DNA from: Nitrospirota bacterium | GTDB lineage: Bacteria; Nitrospirota; UBA9217 | DNA: 64,000 nucleotides | Direction of reading: 5' to 3' | Assembly (NCBI GenBank): GCA_963737155.1 | Contig: CAVTRN010000001.1 | Coordinates: forward strand, 832,001-896,000 | Shown here: positions 5,171-18,384 of the stretch, in pieces | Numbering within the stretch: position 1 is the stretch's first letter | How the letters are laid out: each line of letters opens with the position of its first letter | The notes under the pieces: generated by a model | What the model was told of the DNA's origin: nothing | The model's database searches: none | Seen by the model: only the letters and a program-made list of their open reading frames with translations | Position numbers and translations under genes: made by a program

Positions 5171-5228
5171 CATCTGTACAACTTGCCGTTGCTTCTTAAA
5201 AAGCGGACATTTTTACTTTGCCTTGGCA
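5171..5228 (+). mobile_element. Isolated IS end (IS1202/ISNCY-like)
   Basis: About 58 bp similar to 45043-45101, sharing GCGGACATTTTTACTTTGCCTTG(G/A)CA. Confidence 0.6.
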
Positions 5229-5307
5229 TACTCAGACAACGTCATTGACATAGATTAGCAGCAAGAATATATTCGTCTAATGAGGAGCTTGCTGTTATAA
5301 AGCAAAT

Positions 5308-5838
5308 ATGCGGATCGCTATATCAGGTACTCAATGTTCAGGAAAATCGACGCTCGTCGAGGCGTTGTCCGAAGCTCTCCCCCAGTATATGACCGTCGAC
5401 GAGCCCTACCATCTCTTGCAAGAGGAGGGGTACGAGTTTGCAGAGTTGCTCACCATCGAGGACTTCGAGATACAACTGGAGCGATCCATCGAGAGTCTGG
5501 ACGAAAAAGCTCCGAACATCATTTTCGACCGATGTCCAGCCGACATCCTAGGCTATCTTCTTTCGCATACCGACATTGAAGCGTTTGATCTCGAGGACTG
5601 GCTACCTCGCGTTCAAATTGCGATTAGGAAGCTTGATCTATTAGTCTTCTTACCAATCGAAGAGCCTGACCGGATAGTTCTACCATTGTCGGAGGACGCC
5701 GCGTACAGACAACGTGTGAACGAAAAACTCAAAGAGATTATTCTAGAGAATTCATTCGACTTCAAGGTGGACGTGCTGGAAGTCAAGGGTAGCGCGAAAA
5801 CGCGTCTTGAGCAGGTTTTAGCGCGTATCTACAATTAG
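5308..5838 (+). CDS. AAA_28/NadR-type ATP-binding protein
   Basis: MRIAISGTQCSGKST Walker A and IIFDRCPAD motif. Confidence 0.8.
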   Translation: MRIAISGTQCSGKSTLVEALSEALPQYMTVDEPYHLLQEEGYEFAELLTIEDFEIQLERSIESLDEKAPNIIFDRCPADILGYLLSHTDIEAFDLEDWLPRVQIAIRKLDLLVFLPIEEPDRIVLPLSEDAAYRQRVNEKLKEIILENSFDFKVDVLEVKGSAKTRLEQVLARIYN

Positions 5839-6294
5839 GGTGTCAGGCGTTATAAGAGAAACTCGGGAAGTCCAGACTCAGATTGTTTTTTGTATATAAA
5901 AACTTCCTGGTTTATTGTTGTCAAGTATTTTTGGAATAAAATAGAGTTTACTTGATTTATGGTTTTTGTTCTTGGTCACGATAAATATACCAGTAAGGGA
6001 TATCGCTCCAAAGTGATGGTTGAACAGGTTCTCAGTCCTTCGGGGCCAAAATTTTTTCTCACAAGTGCCCCAGTATCGGTTTCTCACTGGCAGTCCATAT
6101 CCTGATCACCCTAAACATTAATCTGTGCGGCACCTTGTCCAACCCTGGTAATTAGAGGGTCTCAAGAGAGTCCTGACCCTGCTTCATGGGGACAAAGGTG
6201 CAAGCGGGGATTATTGATTCTGTAGCCGAAGGTCGGCATGGCCGCCTTAGTGGAAGTTGAGATAATTTCCCCGCTTACACGCAAAGATTTTAAG

Positions 6295-11252: not shown

Positions 11253-11873
11253 TTAAATTCGGCGCGCATTGTCATCAGGATAGACGTACTCCATGTGTTT
11301 GGCTGTCGCCCTGGCAACATTTTCCCCGTAATGGAGCGCCACTACCTTAAGTGCCATGTCGATGCCTGCAGAAATTCCAGCCGATGTAAACACGCGCCCG
11401 TCCACAACAACATGCTTGTCATATTCAACTTTTACAGAGGGAAATGAATCACGCATCCAATCCAATGAACGCCAATGCGTCGTAGCGTGGAGTCCGTTTA
11501 ACAACCCCGCGGACCCAAGAAGCATAGCCCCAGTACAAACTGATGATAACGTTTCAACCTCCGATGCACGATGCCGTAACCAATCAAGCATTGCGAGGTT
11601 CTGTAGTGCCTTCCGAGTGCCCCACCCGCCAGGAACTACAAGAATGTCCACTTTAGGGCAGCTGTCAAATGTATAGTCTGGAAGTACCCTCATACTCCCT
11701 GCTGTCACTACTTGAGATAATTTCTCCGCAACGAGTAATATTTCAAAAGGTGAATCCTCTTCGCGTCGTTTCTCTTCGTTTAATCGGGTTACGGAAAACA
11801 CCTCAAAGGGACCGCAGAAATCGAGTACTTCGACATCCTCAAACAATACAATGGCAACACGCTTTCTTTCCAT
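11253..11873 (-). CDS. DJ-1/PfpI family protein (InhA-like)
   Basis: EVLDFCGPFEVF, VVPGGWG, SVCTG, ATTHW and TSAGISAGID motifs. Confidence 0.9.
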   Translation of the reverse strand: MERKRVAIVLFEDVEVLDFCGPFEVFSVTRLNEEKRREEDSPFEILLVAEKLSQVVTAGSMRVLPDYTFDSCPKVDILVVPGGWGTRKALQNLAMLDWLRHRASEVETLSSVCTGAMLLGSAGLLNGLHATTHWRSLDWMRDSFPSVKVEYDKHVVVDGRVFTSAGISAGIDMALKVVALHYGENVARATAKHMEYVYPDDNARRI

Positions 11874-12575
11874 CAACTATGCCCTTTTAATTTTCCCCTT
11901 AGATTGATGTACAAGCATTCGTTTGGTTTTACACACATGTTTCAGTTGTCACATTTACCTGTGCCCACCATGCTCATGATGCAGTATATAGGAAGAAAAC
12001 TGCGCCGCATGTTTCAACCACGAAACTACACACCTTCTTAAACTATTTCTATTTCATGTCCACCTAAAAGGTAGCAATGTCACCCACTTGAAGGCGCACC
12101 GTCAAGAGAAACAGTCAACTTTTCTCAAGAGAAATGATATTTTCTTGTCGATGTTTTATCAGTCATCAACAGGCATACCATTGCTGTAGTTTCATTTAGT
12201 TTGTGTATCAGCAGTGCTGTACCACTTACCCATCTGGATTAAGGTCTTGTTGGTGATGAGCGGCTTTCAGCAGCACCCTTTCCCCGCTGAGCGGGGAGCA
12301 AAAAATCATCGGCTCCTTGCCGTGCCCATAAAAGATTATAACAATACTTGTGGTTTTTTTACCAGCCTCTGAGTGGTTCACGGCACGGGCAGTAACGATG
12401 CTGATGACCCTATAGTTTTGGGTGGAATGGTTTACCAATCAATTTTTTAGTCTTCCACCAGTGCACCTGGGTCCCGCTCCGGCCATCTTGTCATCATTAT
12501 AGACCTGCCCCCAAGATGGTGTTGCAAAGAAAGACGAGAACGGACCTGTCCCTAAGATGTTCCCTTCTAACCTCA

Positions 12576-12698
12576 CTACTTCGATCCAAACGTGTTCTTT
12601 GGCTGATGGTCCTTCTTCTGCTGTACTTCATGCTCATGCTTCATTATTTTCTGCTTCTGACTCTTATCTTTGCCCTTCTTGCCACCCTTGTCTCCCAT
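12576..12698 (-). CDS. 40-aa Lys/Gln-rich small protein (MGDKGGKK...)
   Basis: AAGGAGG RBS 6 nt before ATG; below the ORF-track size cutoff. Confidence 0.55.
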   Translation of the reverse strand: MGDKGGKKGKDKSQKQKIMKHEHEVQQKKDHQPKNTFGSK

Positions 12699-12878
12699 CG
12701 TGCGCCTCCTTTTTACACCTGCATATAGTGCATGTAAGCAGTATACCATATTTATGCTTTCTAGTAGTTGCAGAGGACAGATTAGGGGACCTATTTCACG
12801 TCGCTTTTCTTGGCCCGCTTTTTTCGCTTTATTCTTCCTGCCTGCTAAGTACGCCTCCTCGGGCCTCCATCTAAAAGA

Positions 12879-13090
12879 AATCCTGGCGAGCTGCTAGGGG
12901 AGGATTATATGCCTGATTACGGCTTAACAATATCAAGTTTGGCCGAGAAACTTGGGGTATCGCGTCAGACGATTAATGAACTGCTCCGTGAGCGGAGTTT
13001 GATTTCGCCCGCGATGGCACTACGGCTATCCCGGCTATTCGGCAATACGCCCAAATTTGGCTGAAGGCTTAGCATGCCGTTGATCTTTAG
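12879..13090 (+). pseudogene. higA: HigA-family antitoxin remnant
   Basis: Reads PGELLGEDYMPDYGLTISSLAEKLGVSRQTINELLRERSLISPAMALRLSRLFGNTP, then a frameshift to WLKA*HAVDL; start missing. Confidence 0.8.
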
Positions 13091-13220
13091 TATTCTCCGC
13101 TATTCTTTAAAGCGTCTATCCAATATGGAACTGTGGTGTGGCCGAGAAATATTGAAATTGTACCCGAGACGTTCTGGACCCGATAGGTGCACGAAGAGTC
13201 GGCCCTGTCCTCTATGCCAT

Positions 13221-15008
13221 TCAACCTTTGTTTGCGCTTTCTATTGTTGCCTTGATCCGCGCAAGCCTACTTTTTATTTCATCCAGCTTCCCCGTTGTCT
13301 CGGCCAACATCTGCTTTCGCACCTCGACATCATGTGCGCCCTTCGACCTCTGCACCATGCCTTTTTCGATCGCACTGGCAATCCCCTCTATAGTTGTGTC
13401 GATCTTCTGGAAAATTTCCCAGCGGAAGGCGAGCTTGCTTTTATCCAGGCGTTCTTCAAAATCGTTTCCTGCCCTGGCGGCCTGCATGGTCACAACTCTC
13501 TGGAGGTATTCCTTCATCTTCTTAAGGATAATTTTATCGCCAATGAATTTCGGCAGGGCAAGGGTTAAGGTTGAAGCAATGATCGCCATGCCCACAGGTT
13601 GTTCCTTAAACCTGTAGTAGAAGTCGGACTTGACGCTCCAGAGGGCTTCCGCCTTGACCGTATCGAAGGGTACGGAGAATAGCTCGGAGGAATAGTGCAG
13701 CAGCTCATCCACCGTTTCATTGATCTTGGTAATGAACCGTTTGCAGATGGCTTCAAAGGCCCTTGCGAGCCGTTCGTCTTCCATGGCGCGCCAGGTGATA
13801 AACGCCTGCTTGACATGAACAATGACAGCTTGCTCAAGGGTGCTACGAAGATCTTTGAGGGAAAGGCCCTTATTCTGTTCAAATTGCTCTGTGAGATGCT
13901 CATGTTCGCGAGTCATCAGGTCCCTGACGAATCCCTGCAGATCATCGTTCAGTTCGCCCTTGTCCAATCGTGAGACTTCGCCCTCTAGCAGGATCTCGAA
14001 GTCCCGCTTCACCTGCTCCACTTCGCCTTTTTTACTTTCAAATGCCCGCAATTTGTCTTTCAGTTGTTCGAGCGGTGATGTGAGCGACTTCAGTTCAAGT
14101 TCCAATTCGAGCTTTGCCTGAGAAATACTCCTGAGCAGGTTGTTTGTGACGGAGAGGATGAGTACATTTCCCTTCTCTTCCATCAAAAACCTATGTAAGT
14201 CTTTGGAAAAAGGGGGAAGCCTGCTTTTCTCCATCAGCTCCGCGGACTTCGCGGCCACCGCGTCAAGGGCGAGCCGCGCAGAGATAGGGAAGAGCTTTAC
14301 CTCAGAACGCATGACATCCTTCAGCCCATGCTTGGAAAATTCAATGGACTCCTTAAGATCGTTCTCCCGCAGGTAATCGGCCTTGTTCAGAACAAAGAAT
14401 ATTTTGTTTGAATACTCTTTCACGTCCCTCAAGAAGTCAAGCTCGGCCCTGCTCATTGGCTGATCCACAGAGAGAAGAAAGAGCGCGGCATCCGATTTTG
14501 GCAAATACTGGTACGCAACATCCGTATTGTGTTGATATATCGAGCCAACGCCAGGTGTATCGATAAGCCGTACACCGTCCTTAAGATAAGGTGAAGGGTA
14601 CGAGAGGATCACTTCGCGGACATCTTTTACATTTTTCGGATTGCCTTTTTCCGTAACATATTCCACGAGACTATCCGACTTGATTTCGGCGATTTTGCCG
14701 TCATTGAAATATACTTTGATCCTGAGCGCTTCGCCCCAGGTCATAATGGTCACGATGGAGGTAAGCGGAACGACCGCTACAGGTAGGATTTCGGCACCCA
14801 AGAGCGCATTTACGAGGCTTGTTTTTCCGCGCTTGAACTGGCCAACAACCACAAGATTGAAGGTGTTGCTCCTAACCTTTTCTTTCAGATCTTCGCAGGC
14901 GCAGCTCCGGATGTTCTCGATCATAAGCATTTCGTCCATGCACTGCAAGAGGCCGTTTTTCAGTTGGGCATATTTTGAGGTTGAAGATGGTTGCACTGCC
15001 GGATTCAC
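13221..15008 (-). CDS. Bacterial dynamin-like protein (Dynamin_N GTPase plus helical stalk)
   Basis: G1 GQFKRGKTS, G2 VVPLT, G3 DTPG and G4 NKAD; long coiled-coil C-terminus with a hydrophobic paddle-like segment (GMAIIASTLTLALP). Confidence 0.9.
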   Translation of the reverse strand: MNPAVQPSSTSKYAQLKNGLLQCMDEMLMIENIRSCACEDLKEKVRSNTFNLVVVGQFKRGKTSLVNALLGAEILPVAVVPLTSIVTIMTWGEALRIKVYFNDGKIAEIKSDSLVEYVTEKGNPKNVKDVREVILSYPSPYLKDGVRLIDTPGVGSIYQHNTDVAYQYLPKSDAALFLLSVDQPMSRAELDFLRDVKEYSNKIFFVLNKADYLRENDLKESIEFSKHGLKDVMRSEVKLFPISARLALDAVAAKSAELMEKSRLPPFSKDLHRFLMEEKGNVLILSVTNNLLRSISQAKLELELELKSLTSPLEQLKDKLRAFESKKGEVEQVKRDFEILLEGEVSRLDKGELNDDLQGFVRDLMTREHEHLTEQFEQNKGLSLKDLRSTLEQAVIVHVKQAFITWRAMEDERLARAFEAICKRFITKINETVDELLHYSSELFSVPFDTVKAEALWSVKSDFYYRFKEQPVGMAIIASTLTLALPKFIGDKIILKKMKEYLQRVVTMQAARAGNDFEERLDKSKLAFRWEIFQKIDTTIEGIASAIEKGMVQRSKGAHDVEVRKQMLAETTGKLDEIKSRLARIKATIESANKG

Positions 15009-15028
15009 GCTATGGTCTCCTGTACATA

Positions 15029-15065
15029 GAAAAAACTCCTACCCTCAGGCTTAGAGAGTAGGAGT
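15029..15065 (-). terminator. Expression-platform terminator of fluoride riboswitch 2
   Basis: ACTCCTACTCTC-TAAGCCT-GAGGGTAGGAGT-TTTTT; the 5' arm overlaps the aptamer 3' strand. Confidence 0.8.
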
Positions 15066-15108
15066 CATCAGCTTCACAAGAAGCGGTTAATGGCGAACTC
15101 CATCACCG
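15055..15108 (-). promoter_or_regulatory. Fluoride riboswitch (crcB motif) upstream of the dynamin-like gene
   Basis: GGTGATGGAGTTCGCCATTAACCGC...GCTGATGACTCCTAC matches the crcB aptamer consensus. Confidence 0.92.
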
Positions 15109-15168
15109 TAATTCAAACCAATCACCTATTGGTCATGTTTGTCAAAAAAGGCCAGGGATTCTGTGCAA

Positions 15169-15414
15169 TCATTCGAAACCGCTTTCCTGATTTTCCTTAT
15201 TTTCCGCGCCTTCTTTTGCTTTTTCACCTTCGCTAGCAGCCTCTCCCTGTGAACTGTCTTCCTCTTCGGGTTCCTCGATCTCCTGCCCAGCATGCTTTGC
15301 TAATACGCTCCGTTCTGCATCGAGCCAATCATCAAGATCATGACCGCGGATATACCCTCTCGTCTCATATAGTTGATAGGCAACCGCTGCGATCTCACCA
15401 TGCAGATTCATCAC
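15169..15414 (-). CDS. DUF2934 family small protein
   Basis: IAAVAYQLYETRGYIRGHDLDDWLDAE signature; acidic tail. Confidence 0.8.
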   Translation of the reverse strand: MMNLHGEIAAVAYQLYETRGYIRGHDLDDWLDAERSVLAKHAGQEIEEPEEEDSSQGEAASEGEKAKEGAENKENQESGFE

Positions 15415-15508
15415 TTTTCTCCTTCATATCGCAATGAGACGGTCATTCTCGCAGGTGATACAGGTTGGACTCTATCGTGCAATGATTCAGCGAAATTGAC
15501 AGGCACTC

Positions 15509-16228
15509 TCAACCGTCAACCAGGCCAGCGGCGTCTCTATGGGTGTACTTTATCACATTCACGTCCGAAAGGACGACGATCCCTTCTCCCACCAGTTCAT
15601 CAAGGATGGGGATAACTTTATTGATTTTCTCTTCGCTGTCCATGACGGTGATCAGGATCGGAAGTTCGCCATGCATCGTCATGGTTTTCTTTTTGTGATA
15701 GCGCTTGTGCGGGCCGTACCCTGCGATGGCCTTGTAAACCGTTGCTCCCGCGATATCGGTCATGATAAGCCTTTTTACTATAGCTTCGTACAGCGGTTCG
15801 CCTTCCCACTTGTCATCCTCGCTGATTAAGATACGGAGCATTTTTGCCTTGCCTTCTAGCTTCATATGTTCTCCTTGTTTTTCGCGCTTCTCCTCCGCCT
15901 TCGGGCAGCACTTGATGACGTTCGTGTCTGCGATCTCCACCATGCCCTTTTCTACTACATGGTAAATGTCCGGGAGCACCTTGTTGATCATCTCCTCGGA
16001 TTCTACCACCTCGATCTTCATTGGCATGCTCGTGGACATTTCAAGCATCTTGGCCGTATGAAAGAGGCCGTCGCTTCCATAGCCCGCAATGCCACGGAAT
16101 ACACTAACGCCCACGATCTTTTTTTTGAAAAAGATATCGAGCAGTACTTCATAGACGGGCTTTCCGTGGAACTTGTCCGTCTCATCTACATAGACAGTCA
16201 GTTTTTTCGCCGGCCCATTGGTTACCAT
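15509..16228 (-). CDS. Tandem DUF190 (COG1993, PII-like) protein
   Basis: Two repeats (KLTVYVDETDKFHGKP..GVSVFRGIAGYG and MLRILISEDDKWEGEP..GATVYKAIAGYG); lies next to crcB. Confidence 0.88.
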   Translation of the reverse strand: MVTNGPAKKLTVYVDETDKFHGKPVYEVLLDIFFKKKIVGVSVFRGIAGYGSDGLFHTAKMLEMSTSMPMKIEVVESEEMINKVLPDIYHVVEKGMVEIADTNVIKCCPKAEEKREKQGEHMKLEGKAKMLRILISEDDKWEGEPLYEAIVKRLIMTDIAGATVYKAIAGYGPHKRYHKKKTMTMHGELPILITVMDSEEKINKVIPILDELVGEGIVVLSDVNVIKYTHRDAAGLVDG

Positions 16229-16238
16229 GCTTTGTCTC

Positions 16239-16613
16239 CTATATCCCCTTTGCAATCACTTCACCCAGCTTCAAGGCCATGAATCCAACGACAACGCTTA
16301 AAACCATATTGAGCGCTGCGAAACCAAGTTCTCCGTCAATGACCAGTTTGCCGGTCTCATACTGAAATGTTGAGAATGTAGTGTAACCGCCCAGTCCCCC
16401 GACAACGAGAAGCAGTCTCCACTGCGGATTTTCCAGGAAGCGTTCCGCCATCAGAGTCATGAGAAAACCGATAAGAAAGCTTCCGCTGACGTTAATCAGA
16501 AAGGTCCCGAGGGGAAAGCTCCTTCCCCACCGTTGGCCGATCCAGGTTGCCAGCATGAAGCGCGCAACGGAGCCGATGCCACCGCCCGCGAAAACTACAA
16601 TATAGTTTATCAT
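16239..16613 (-). CDS. crcB: Fluoride efflux channel Fluc/CrcB
   Basis: GGGIGSVARF, FPLGTFLINVSGSF and GGYTTFSTF motifs. Confidence 0.95.
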   Translation of the reverse strand: MINYIVVFAGGGIGSVARFMLATWIGQRWGRSFPLGTFLINVSGSFLIGFLMTLMAERFLENPQWRLLLVVGGLGGYTTFSTFQYETGKLVIDGELGFAALNMVLSVVVGFMALKLGEVIAKGI

Positions 16614-16634
16614 GGATAGTATGTCCCTTGATCG

Positions 16635-17059
16635 TTATTTTACGATTGCTACAGTGCACGGAGCATAGGTCGTCACGCGTTTTGATACCGATCCCAGAAG
16701 CCAGGTCGCTATTTTCGATTTGCCCCGCTGGCCTACAAAGACCATGTCGCGCTTTTTTTCGATGGCATATTTTATAATTTGATCCGCTGGATGGCCGACA
16801 ACGATCTCTGTTGTAATTTCAATATTATATGTCTTCGCTTTGTCCCTGAGTCCTTTGAACAGTCCTTCGTAATGCTCAGTAGCGCCGTCGATTATTGCAT
16901 CCATTTCGACAATATCGATAGGCTCTGGCGGCTGCGCCACCGATAAGACTGCAATCTTCGGTGATGCCCCGGTGCAAATCCGGGATATTTCAAGGCAAAG
17001 TCAAAAGCTTTATACGACTGCGGAGAGCCATCAAAGGCAACGAGTATCTTGATCAGCAT
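16635..17059 (-). pseudogene. Universal stress protein, single-base frameshift
   Basis: N-terminus MLIKILVAFDGSPQSYKAFDFAL and C-terminus GHPADQI..GQRGKS..LLGSVS are in different frames; the 425-nt span is 1 nt short, with the shift near 16988. Confidence 0.85.
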
Positions 17060-18273
17060 GGAAGCCTCCTCTTGGATAACTGCCAGGGTAATAAATTATT
17101 TCGGCGAAGCAGCAATTTTTCCCCCTTTTTCGGTAATAGATAACGAGGAACGAAGAAGGCATTCGCAATGAGGGTCGGCACAACGGCGCTCCCAATGACC
17201 GCTACGATCAGCAGGGAATACTGCACCTGATCGATGATCTTATGGGAAAGCCCGAAAAGCGCGGCAATGGAACCGAAAGTCAATCCAGTGGACATGAGAA
17301 GCGTGGTGTAGATGCCTTCCTTCTGCGCGTATTTGTACGCCTTCGTTGCTGGATACACGCCGATGATCTTCGTAATCATCTTTGTTACAAACAGCACGAG
17401 CAAAGCAACAGGCGCGGCGATAATCGCCGGGACCGACACATATGAACCGGCGCGGATGAAATAGAACGGCGTGAGCAGGCCGAATGTCAGCGTCCTGAGC
17501 CGCCTGATGAGGACGTGGTCCTTGCCCACGGTCCCAGCGAGCACCATGCCGATGATATATGCCGGCAGCACTGCTTCGCTGTCCGACCATACTGCGAGTG
17601 ACCCGAGGCCAAAAAGAACCATCAGGAGGTATTTAGCTTCGAGTTCCGACGGCCGGTCCCCGTATTTCTTGAAGAACCACGGCGTGAGATAAGGGAGAAT
17701 AAAAAATACGGCAGCTCCGACGCCGACAAAGATCAGTGTCCTCACCGTGAATGGCGCGAAGATCAGACCCAAGGCAAGGACTGCACCGAGGCCAGTGACA
17801 AAGCAAGCAGCAAGGACTGCCTTGCCGAAGTCGGTCTTGTTGAGCCCTAGTTCCAGCATCACCGCGTAGACCACGGCAACCGAGGTCGTGGAAAGGGCCA
17901 CGCCCGCCAACCAGCTTGCTTGCACGGTCCAGTGAAGGAGGTAGTACGCGGCCGCAGTGCAACCGAGAAGGTGCGAGAGAAATGAGATAAAGCCGATGGC
18001 AGTCGCTTCCTTGAGCTTAGCCTTGAACACCATAGGGTCAAGCTCCGCGCCTGCAAGAAAAGTAAGAACAATAGCACCAGTGCTGGACAGGAACTTGATC
18101 CATGGCTCGTTGGAGCCAAGTGTTGTTCCTATAAATGCGCCGATGATCAACTGGGCTACGGTGCCGACAACGATTTCCGAGAGTGCCATGGCAATTCTGA
18201 GCCAGATGGAAAACAGGGTGGCGAGCAAGGCCAGACCCAGCCAAAGCGCGGCCATTCCCCAAACCTCATGCAT
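17053..18273 (-). CDS. Cation:proton antiporter (CPA2, Na+/H+ exchanger family)
   Basis: About 12 hydrophobic segments, TFLAGAELD and LSTTSVAVV motifs; the real start is MHEVWG, downstream of the riboswitch. Confidence 0.9.
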   Translation of the reverse strand: MHEVWGMAALWLGLALLATLFSIWLRIAMALSEIVVGTVAQLIIGAFIGTTLGSNEPWIKFLSSTGAIVLTFLAGAELDPMVFKAKLKEATAIGFISFLSHLLGCTAAAYYLLHWTVQASWLAGVALSTTSVAVVYAVMLELGLNKTDFGKAVLAACFVTGLGAVLALGLIFAPFTVRTLIFVGVGAAVFFILPYLTPWFFKKYGDRPSELEAKYLLMVLFGLGSLAVWSDSEAVLPAYIIGMVLAGTVGKDHVLIRRLRTLTFGLLTPFYFIRAGSYVSVPAIIAAPVALLVLFVTKMITKIIGVYPATKAYKYAQKEGIYTTLLMSTGLTFGSIAALFGLSHKIIDQVQYSLLIVAVIGSAVVPTLIANAFFVPRYLLPKKGEKLLLRRNNLLPWQLSKRRLPC

Positions 18274-18293
18274 CCTCTGTCCTTTCCGGGCAT

Positions 18294-18374
18294 AAAAAAC
18301 TCCTGCCCTCATCATATTGAGAGTAGGAGTCATCAGCCCGAGAAACAGGGCGGTTTTGGCGAACTCCATCGCCT
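18294..18374 (-). promoter_or_regulatory. Fluoride riboswitch (crcB motif) with terminator, leading the antiporter-usp-crcB operon
   Basis: GGCGATGGAGTTCGCCAAAACCGC...GCTGATGACTCCTAC, then ...GAGGGCAGGAGTTTTT. Confidence 0.93.
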
Positions 18375-18384
18375 TCTTTTTTTA

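Follow-up and report, generated by a model that had tools for sequence, protein, structure and literature searches.

Fluoride riboswitches and bacterial dynamin-like proteins (DLPs) are each well known, and the link between both is apparently undescribed. The known fluoride regulon includes crcB/Fluc, CLC-F, Na+/H+ antiporters, enolase, pyrophosphatase, formate hydrogen lyase, mutS-like genes and Usp. Among the DLPs, IniA of mycobacteria is induced by cell-wall drugs via protein regulators and sits in iniBAC together with a second DLP, and for BDLP of Nostoc punctiforme we know of no stress inducer. Here we analyzed a stretch of 64,000 nucleotides from a Nitrospirota bacterium (assembly GCA_963737155.1, contig CAVTRN010000001.1, positions 832,001 to 896,000; hereafter the window), in which a fluoride aptamer of the crcB class directly precedes the gene of a 595-aa DLP. 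The family of this protein is very probably a conserved member of the fluoride regulon. IniA is reported to be drug-induced and to mediate membrane fission (PMC6715688), DynA of Bacillus subtilis to gather in clusters on membranes upon exposure to pore-forming antibiotics and phage (PMC12998192), and most bacterial DLP genes to be paired in operons (PMC6104087).

The leader of the dynamin-like gene and its recurrence

The whole window was scanned with Rfam (cmscan) and two matches to the fluoride family RF01734 (gathering score 34 bits) were found, both on the minus strand, with no match to any other family. Aptamer 1 heads an exporter/antiporter operon, and aptamer 2 begins 52 nt past the stop codon of the DUF2934 gene and leads the DLP gene (Table 1). 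The first-pass annotation of the window had described a second complete crcB aptamer with an overlapping terminator before the dynamin-like gene, and a separate riboswitch heading an antiporter-usp-crcB-DUF190 operon; both descriptions hold, with a DUF2934 gene added to the operon. The scan of the whole genome gave no RF01734 match above the cut-off beyond these two. A third candidate, G000:C2:3022338-3022419 (L003:1501-1582, minus strand), scored 26.4 bits, lies inside a 474-aa open reading frame (ORF) on the plus strand and is probably spurious.

RNA folding and a consensus scan placed a 13-pair hairpin at 15066-15034, followed by a run of six T's (15035-15030) which ends 21 nt before the GTG start codon. 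The 3′ pseudoknot strand of aptamer 2, ACUCC (15065-15061), lies in the 5′ arm of this terminator, and because the strand is common to both structures, aptamer and terminator are mutually exclusive. On the strength of this leader anatomy and of what is established for the fluoride riboswitch class, aptamer 2 is well supported as an ON switch by which fluoride would control transcription of the gene for the cell's single dynamin-like GTPase, the response of the window leader itself being predicted. With fluoride absent, ACUCC would join the terminator and transcription would halt at the T-run; with fluoride bound, it would be held in the pseudoknot, the terminator could not form and the DLP mRNA would be made.

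The aptamer structure is well kept among relatives. Across 26 related aptamers, 97.6% of the cells in P1, P2 and the pseudoknot are paired, and compensatory changes on both sides are seen in 7 of 13 pairs, including three of the five pseudoknot pairs; the covariation score was reached by none of 500 shuffles, to which the usual caveats of a shuffle control apply. A simple scan found a terminator-like hairpin with a U-run in 79 of 100 leaders in which the aptamer stands directly before a DLP gene. In the remaining 21, inspection by eye showed several with long-loop terminators and several others with helices by which the Shine-Dalgarno sequence would be hidden, and some of them, including two of the three archaeal-labelled leaders, stop roughly a dozen bases short of the start codon. 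That one gene family carries differing expression platforms argues for selection on the fluoride coupling and suggests independent ways of tying the DLP gene to fluoride.

The relatives were gathered by protein similarity alone and their aptamers were scanned only afterwards. In a close set of 20 loci scanned with Rfam, the aptamer is directly upstream in 11 and farther upstream on the same strand in four; the others comprise one with an adjacent aptamer on the opposite strand, three without any and one in which the gene is cut by the contig end. A set of 80 loci (39-89% identity) was scanned with a covariance model built from the 26 aptamers, and an aptamer was found at most 250 nt upstream in 54 and farther upstream on the same strand in 16, with two more loci carrying one elsewhere and eight carrying none (two of these eight having less than 400 nt of upstream contig). 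For a distant set, the query was an alignment of representatives whose identity to the window protein is 29-38%, and among 57 contigs not already seen the aptamer was direct in 46, farther upstream in three and absent in eight. Thirteen direct matches scored below 34 bits with the custom covariance model; the Rfam model confirmed seven of these and not the other six, so the conservative direct counts are 53/80 and 41/57.

Even genome samples were then drawn from two phyla. In the phylum of the window, 56 of 151 genomes carry an aptamer and 95 do not. Orthologues of the DLP (E <= 1e-219) number 11 genes in 10 genomes, and all 11 are preceded by a same-strand aptamer, at no more than 70 nt in eight cases (one of these aptamers at 31 bits, under the cut-off) and about 1.7 kb away in three; in the corresponding fetched loci this gap is taken up by antiporter and Usp genes. 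No orthologue was found in the 95 aptamer-less genomes, two of which hold only distant 850-aa dynamins (E ~1e-14). The second sample, 151 genomes around the genome of locus L109, was searched with a family profile. Aptamers occur in 58 of these genomes, and all 24 genomes holding the 26 family genes are aptamer carriers. The aptamer lies at most about 310 nt upstream of 19 of the 26 genes, a distance measured up to where the protein match begins and hence longer than the true gap; four have a same-strand aptamer 0.5-2.9 kb upstream and three have none on the contig. Seen from the aptamer side, 19 of 74 above-cut-off aptamers in the second phylum and 7 of 77 in the phylum of the window precede a member of the DLP family. 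Since related genomes are not independent, the phylum figures are counts and not tests. One genome, G151, holds three family paralogues, two of them in a 9-kb region with three aptamers (G151:C1:3794093-3802757), where two aptamers diverge about 190 nt apart and one of these leads the DLP at 3801018.

The aptamer-dynamin association is clearly not unique to the genome of the window, as it recurs in the relatives and in both phylum samples. The proteins of the family are about 590 aa long. They come from bacteria and from some metagenome-assembled genomes (MAGs) with archaeal labels, and their genes are almost always under fluoride-riboswitch control. By their record titles the bacterial carriers include Nitrospirota, Thermodesulfovibrionales, Desulfobacterales, Syntrophobacteraceae, Desulfobacca, Desulfurellales, Actinomycetes, Cytophagia, KSB1, Aquificales, Bacillota and beta- and gamma-proteobacteria; the carriers also include MAGs labelled Methanosarcinales, Methanobacteriota and Woesearchaeota, labels which can be wrong.

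A FastTree phylogeny was made of 136 family members and three outgroup DLPs (the characterised BDLP, IniA, LeoA and DynA were not included, and two of 137 loci were left out for an open frame shorter than 480 aa). The family is set apart from the outgroup with a support of 100, given with long-branch warnings. Aptamer-linked rows stand in every major branch, while the unlinked rows are scattered (14 changes or more are needed), with an enrichment in one beta/gamma-proteobacterial subclade. The idea that the riboswitch-linked dynamins might form a clade of their own is thereby rejected; with linked rows spread over the whole tree, the link belongs to the family at large and not to a single clade.

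Gene layout and neighbourhoods

The features of the locus are collected in Table 1. For the Na+/H+ exchanger gene, the true start is probably an internal Met, because the first codons of the longest ORF overlap aptamer 1. The GTG start of the DLP gene is supported by an N-terminal motif, YxxLK...LLxC, conserved in the homologues; the database gene call P0002 (572 aa) begins 23 codons later.

Table 1. Features of the two-aptamer fluoride cluster, in window coordinates
Feature	Position	Strand	Evidence
Promoter-like TTGACG-17-TACCAT before aptamer 1	18413-18385	-	consensus scan
Aptamer 1, leader of exporter/antiporter operon	18317..18382	-	RF01734 65.7 bits, E 5e-16, model positions 1-64
Na+/H+ exchanger family gene (longest ORF)	17053..18369	-	Pfam Na_H_Exchanger 1.6e-31
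Short universal stress protein (Usp) gene	16635..16940	-	Pfam Usp 1.8e-15
CrcB/Fluc fluoride channel gene	16239..16613	-	Pfam CRCB 5.8e-28
Tandem DUF190 (P-II-like) gene	15509..16255	-	Pfam DUF190 9.8e-61, two stretches
DUF2934 small acidic protein gene, last before aptamer 2	15169..15414	-	Pfam DUF2934 1.4e-10
Aptamer 2, leader of dynamin-like gene	15052..15116	-	RF01734 59.6 bits, E 5e-14, model positions 1-64
Intrinsic terminator (predicted expression platform), shares ACUCC with aptamer 2 pseudoknot	15030..15066	-	fold and consensus scan
Shine-Dalgarno GGAG, 8 nt ahead of GTG start	15017..15020	-	sequence
595-aa bacterial dynamin-like GTPase gene, GTG start at 15008-06	13221..15008	-	Pfam Dynamin_N

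The two aptamers stand about 3.2 kb apart in one co-directional cluster (15052-18382). No terminator-like site was found by the consensus scan from the DUF2934 stop codon to aptamer 2, so transcripts reading through from the operon gated by aptamer 1 would meet a second fluoride checkpoint. By such serial gating the DLP would probably be made only at higher or more sustained fluoride than the exporter genes. The same two-aptamer layout, which permits serial gating, was seen again in many relatives.

Downstream of the DLP gene, the window is gene-poor from 11900 to 13220 and holds only a 51-aa helix-turn-helix (HTH) fragment (12909-13064, plus strand), HigA/XRE-like by eye. As nothing but this opposite-strand fragment and gene-poor DNA lies beyond the DLP gene, aptamer 2 serves the dynamin gene alone in the window genome. 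In relatives, the corresponding place after the DLP gene is held by enolase, HAD and HIT genes.

Neighbouring genes were matched by tblastn within the fetched flanks of 137 loci. At least one gene of the fluoride-regulon type (CrcB, Na+/H+ antiporter, Usp, DUF190, enolase, HAD-like or HIT) is present in 79 of them. Matches were found for the Na+/H+ antiporter in 47 loci, Usp in 44, DUF190 in 33, CrcB in 32, enolase in 28, HAD-like proteins in 26, HIT in 13 and an AAA_16-type ATPase of about 270 aa in 12. The upstream side holds mostly the transporter set, and the same-strand downstream order is typically (AAA_16)-enolase-HAD-HIT; many loci consist of the aptamer and the DLP alone, and a second DLP occurs in only two. 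When neighbouring ORFs were clustered de novo, enolase joined the DLP cluster through a chimeric ORF in L083 and was separated by inspection.

Several further genes and elements recur around the family. The AAA_16/STAND-like ATPase (about 260-290 aa) has no NCBIfam model and lies downstream on the strand of the DLP in 11 of its 12 loci, for example L011:3712-4584, L010:7916-8701 and L013:2827-3612; it is not in the window. HIT-family hydrolase genes are found at L011:6702-7100 and L015:1160-1546, among others. MutS domain V and HEAT-repeat proteins (seven loci each) and DUF6062 proteins are met repeatedly in the DLP fluoride clusters (L100:8852-10828, L099:6886-8397, L010:5180-5947, L128:2470-4368), and Mrp- or hydrogenase-like subunits are also among the neighbours. 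Weinberg 2010 (PMC2864571) names mutS and formate hydrogen lyase as neighbours of the crcB motif.

In L015, a Sulfuricellaceae-labelled fluoride cluster, a protein with the prenyltransferase/terpene-cyclase alpha-alpha toroid follows the DLP (5216-6109). In the Acidobacteria-labelled L019 (1-737, minus strand), an aptamer at 674-737 (49.4 bits) points away from the DLP and faces a gene, possibly frameshifted, for cyclopropane-fatty-acyl-phospholipid synthase, which by its position is a predicted second membrane-directed gene under fluoride control. An M-box (magnesium) riboswitch of 135 bits lies just downstream of the fluoride-linked DLP in L108 (4758-4935), and the flank of L018 holds a SECIS_3 element and a ZMP/ZTP riboswitch (12873-12931 and 11759-11844).

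The protein and what it may do

The window protein matches Pfam Dynamin_N (PF00350) over residues 52-209 with 103.6 bits (1.5e-29; cut-off 27). Among 61 family sequences the GTPase motifs G1 GxxKRGKS/T, G2 T83, G3 DxPG and G4 NKxD are invariant (residues G56, R60, G61, K62, T83, D150, P152, G153, N208, K209 and D211), and so are E120, N123 and N126 within a family-specific segment, TExGNPxN. The NCBIfam search gave no specific model for the family. Genome scans found one family match and one Dynamin_N gene in the window genome and no other true dynamin gene; a weak Dynamin_N match covers 44 positions in a 324-aa ORF.

An AlphaFold2 model was made from the alignment of 61 sequences (predicted local distance difference test score, pLDDT, 84.9; predicted TM-score, pTM, 0.72). 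It runs from two N-terminal helices through a G domain (~50-260), three very long helices (264-443) and a tip (~444-490) to two more long helices (487-594), the long helices forming a helical neck/trunk bundle that folds back onto the G domain. Foldseek against the PDB placed IniA first (6e-22) and Nostoc BDLP second (7.5e-21, TM 0.54), with further full-length matches to Cj-DLP1/2 of Campylobacter, SynDLP, mitofusins and LeoA, and a sequence-profile search of the PDB gave BDLP at 1.5e-30 and IniA at 1.5e-26. By its modelled fold, the DLP is a predicted membrane mechano-GTPase of the BDLP/IniA type. The tip carries a conserved aromatic motif, SxFYYK[F/W] (W457, F463, Y464, Y465, K466, F467), together with LALP(K/R)FIG.

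Taken as a whole, the data are in our view best explained, with moderate confidence, by a fluoride-induced dynamin-like family that would maintain or remodel the membrane under fluoride stress; membrane maintenance or remodelling as the function itself comes from homology and is proposed more tentatively. With its aromatic tip the protein would attach to the cytoplasmic membrane, and it would use GTP to repair, seal or remodel a membrane compromised by fluoride stress, a role that would parallel those of the drug-induced IniA and the damage-recruited DynA. This reading is based on the fold, on the analogy with IniA and DynA, and on statements of a 2024 review on fluoride resistance, which reports that under fluoride the expression of membrane-integrity genes rises, autolysis is promoted and drugs against the cell wall become more potent (PMC11139923). 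The first-pass annotation had offered membrane repair or remodelling as one idea; it agrees with the IniA/BDLP fold match and with the review, the function itself being read from these likenesses.

A number of observations weigh against this reading. Family members with no detectable aptamer exist (8/80, 8/57 and 3/26), they are concentrated in the beta/gamma-proteobacterial subclade, and regulation may differ there. The consensus scan found no promoter of its own for aptamer 2, the upstream TTGACA having no good -10 box; in an alignment of eight close loci, a partly conserved TTGAC(A/G)...CCAATAGG...TTTGAA was seen only in the four that bear DUF2934, while the four in which DUF190 adjoins the aptamer show no counterpart. 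Of the genes that follow on the same strand, the most frequent encode cytosolic proteins (HAD-like proteins in 23 of 137 loci, enolase in 18, the AAA_16 ATPase in 11, HIT in 7), which does not directly support a membrane role. In sequence, the protein is no more than 16-18% identical to IniA and BDLP. Its tip (444-490), aromatic and amphipathic, has moderate hydrophobicity, below transmembrane grade, and is modelled with low confidence (pLDDT <50 at residues 456-477); for both reasons, membrane binding through the tip is a prediction.

Among the other explanations, the one that survives best, though unlikely, is that the cell overmakes a GTPase to replace lost activity or to absorb the inhibitor. 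Metal fluorides are transition-state mimics for GTPases, and Mg- or Al-fluoride would trap the GDP-bound form. Such compensation would have its parallel in riboswitch-controlled enolase, which is thought to overcome the inhibition of enolase, and the DLP shares its cluster with this classic fluoride-inhibited enzyme in 28 of 137 loci and stands alongside other P-loop NTPases (AAA_16 ATPase in 12 loci, MutS domain V in seven). The first-pass annotation had also named compensation for an inhibited GTPase, and this idea is weakened by the window genome, which has no other true dynamin and hence no housekeeping copy to compensate for. The family was, moreover, not found without aptamers in the sample of the window's phylum, and a stoichiometric sink could hardly buffer millimolar fluoride.

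It is also conceivable, with low probability, that DLP-driven fission sheds vesicles or builds compartments by which fluoride-rich precipitates or damaged membrane are removed. IniA/IniC are reported to mediate the release of extracellular vesicles (PMC10240201), the review notes that some bacteria sequester fluoride in electron-dense granules (PMC11139923), and the fold is of the fission-competent IniA/BDLP type. Across the 137 loci, however, no cargo, lipid or mineral-handling genes are consistently linked and most loci hold a single DLP, and the evidence as a whole does not separate vesiculation from repair.

A role away from the membrane is held to be just as improbable: the GTPase would act on the nucleoid, the ribosome or the co-encoded enolase, HAD or HIT proteins, with the dynamin fold reused as a scaffold. 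The cytosolic nature of the downstream partners and the lack of strong hydrophobicity in the tip would fit it, and so would the unexplained MutS-like ATPases also present in fluoride clusters (mutS is noted in Weinberg 2010, PMC2864571). The full-length fold match to membrane-active DLPs speaks against it, as does the aromatic motif of the tip, which probably occupies the position of the lipid-binding tip of BDLP and IniA.

Another possibility of equally low probability is a cross-domain "fluoride dynamin", in which fluoride both induces the gene through the riboswitch and actuates the protein directly. Mg- or Al-fluoride would trap the G-domain dimer, bound to GDP, in a transition-state-like form, and the DLP would be locked as a stable membrane tether or coat, whose sealing or stiffening of the membrane would last no longer than the fluoride itself. 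If true, the ion that switches the gene on would also be the one to which the chemistry of this mechano-enzyme is tuned.

The least probable explanation, a partnership in which the DLP would help to organise or stabilise the membrane-borne Fluc/CrcB or Na+/H+ antiporter, draws on the place of the DLP after NaH-Usp-CrcB-DUF190 in the window and close relatives and directly after NaH-Usp under one aptamer in L030, L031, L036, L050, L053, G013, G054 and G090, but among 137 loci the fetched flanks contain a CrcB match in no more than 32 and an antiporter match in 47, and many loci have the aptamer and DLP alone, which also weakens the Fluc organisation suggested in the first-pass annotation.

Novelty, meaning and comparison with described systems

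Full-text searches pairing a fluoride or crcB term with dynamin found no paper on this link, Baker et al. 2012 and supplementary material being outside this coverage; the listed papers that do mention both fluoride and a bacterial dynamin are, judged by title and opening of the abstract, not about fluoride resistance. This agrees with the earlier suggestion that the system is undescribed, and a row for a dynamin-type GTPase in Baker 2012 or in supplementary tables is possible. What appears to be new is that a known switch class governs a new kind of effector and that a DLP family has a defined inducer.

One large DLP subfamily would thereby gain an inducing signal, fluoride, which is specific, cheap and titratable, and with a defined inducer the function of the DLP would become directly testable. 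A regulon of exporters, pH and ion homeostasis and fluoride-sensitive enzymes would gain a membrane-mechanical effector, and this effector stands behind about a quarter of the fluoride riboswitches (19/74) in the second-phylum sample. The data may also bear on fluoride-tolerant hosts for the degradation or synthesis of organofluorines, which is limited by fluoride toxicity according to the review (PMC11139923).

In comparison with IniA (isoniazid-inducible; PDB 6J72/6J73), the window protein is alike in being of similar size (~600 aa) and, by prediction, in having its expression turned on by a specific chemical stress, and IniA is its best structural match over the full length (Foldseek E 6e-22). 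The identity is only 17-18%, the predicted inducer here is fluoride through an RNA switch, and the DLP gene is single. The protein is not regarded as an orthologue of IniA, given this identity, the absence of an adjacent second DLP in the window and its presence in only 2 of 137 loci. Nostoc BDLP (PDB 2J68/2J69/2W6D) gives the best PDB profile match (1.5e-30) and the highest TM-score (0.54), and the layout of G domain, neck, trunk and tip is common to both; BDLP is about 100 aa longer, the identity is 16%, and the tip of the window family has its own aromatic motif. DynA of Bacillus subtilis is a dynamin-like GTPase with a role in membrane integrity, the type of function proposed here (PMC12998192 and PMC8844932), but it has two heads fused in one chain of about 1190 aa. 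With 88.7 bits against a cut-off of 1600, the window protein falls outside the DynA equivalog (NCBIfam NF052648).

With the known fluoride regulon, the locus shares the aptamer class and the ON-switch logic (Weinberg 2010, PMC2864571), and the DLP gene is embedded among regulon genes. The difference is that no dynamin is listed in the 2024 review (PMC11139923) or in Weinberg 2010 (PMC2864571), the words "dynamin" and "GTPase" being absent from the text of the former and "dynamin" from that of the latter. The arrangement also resembles tandem or serial riboswitches in that a single co-directional cluster contains a pair of same-class aptamers and no terminator parts the first unit from aptamer 2, but here the aptamers are separated by kilobases rather than adjacent in one leader, and each stands before its own genes.

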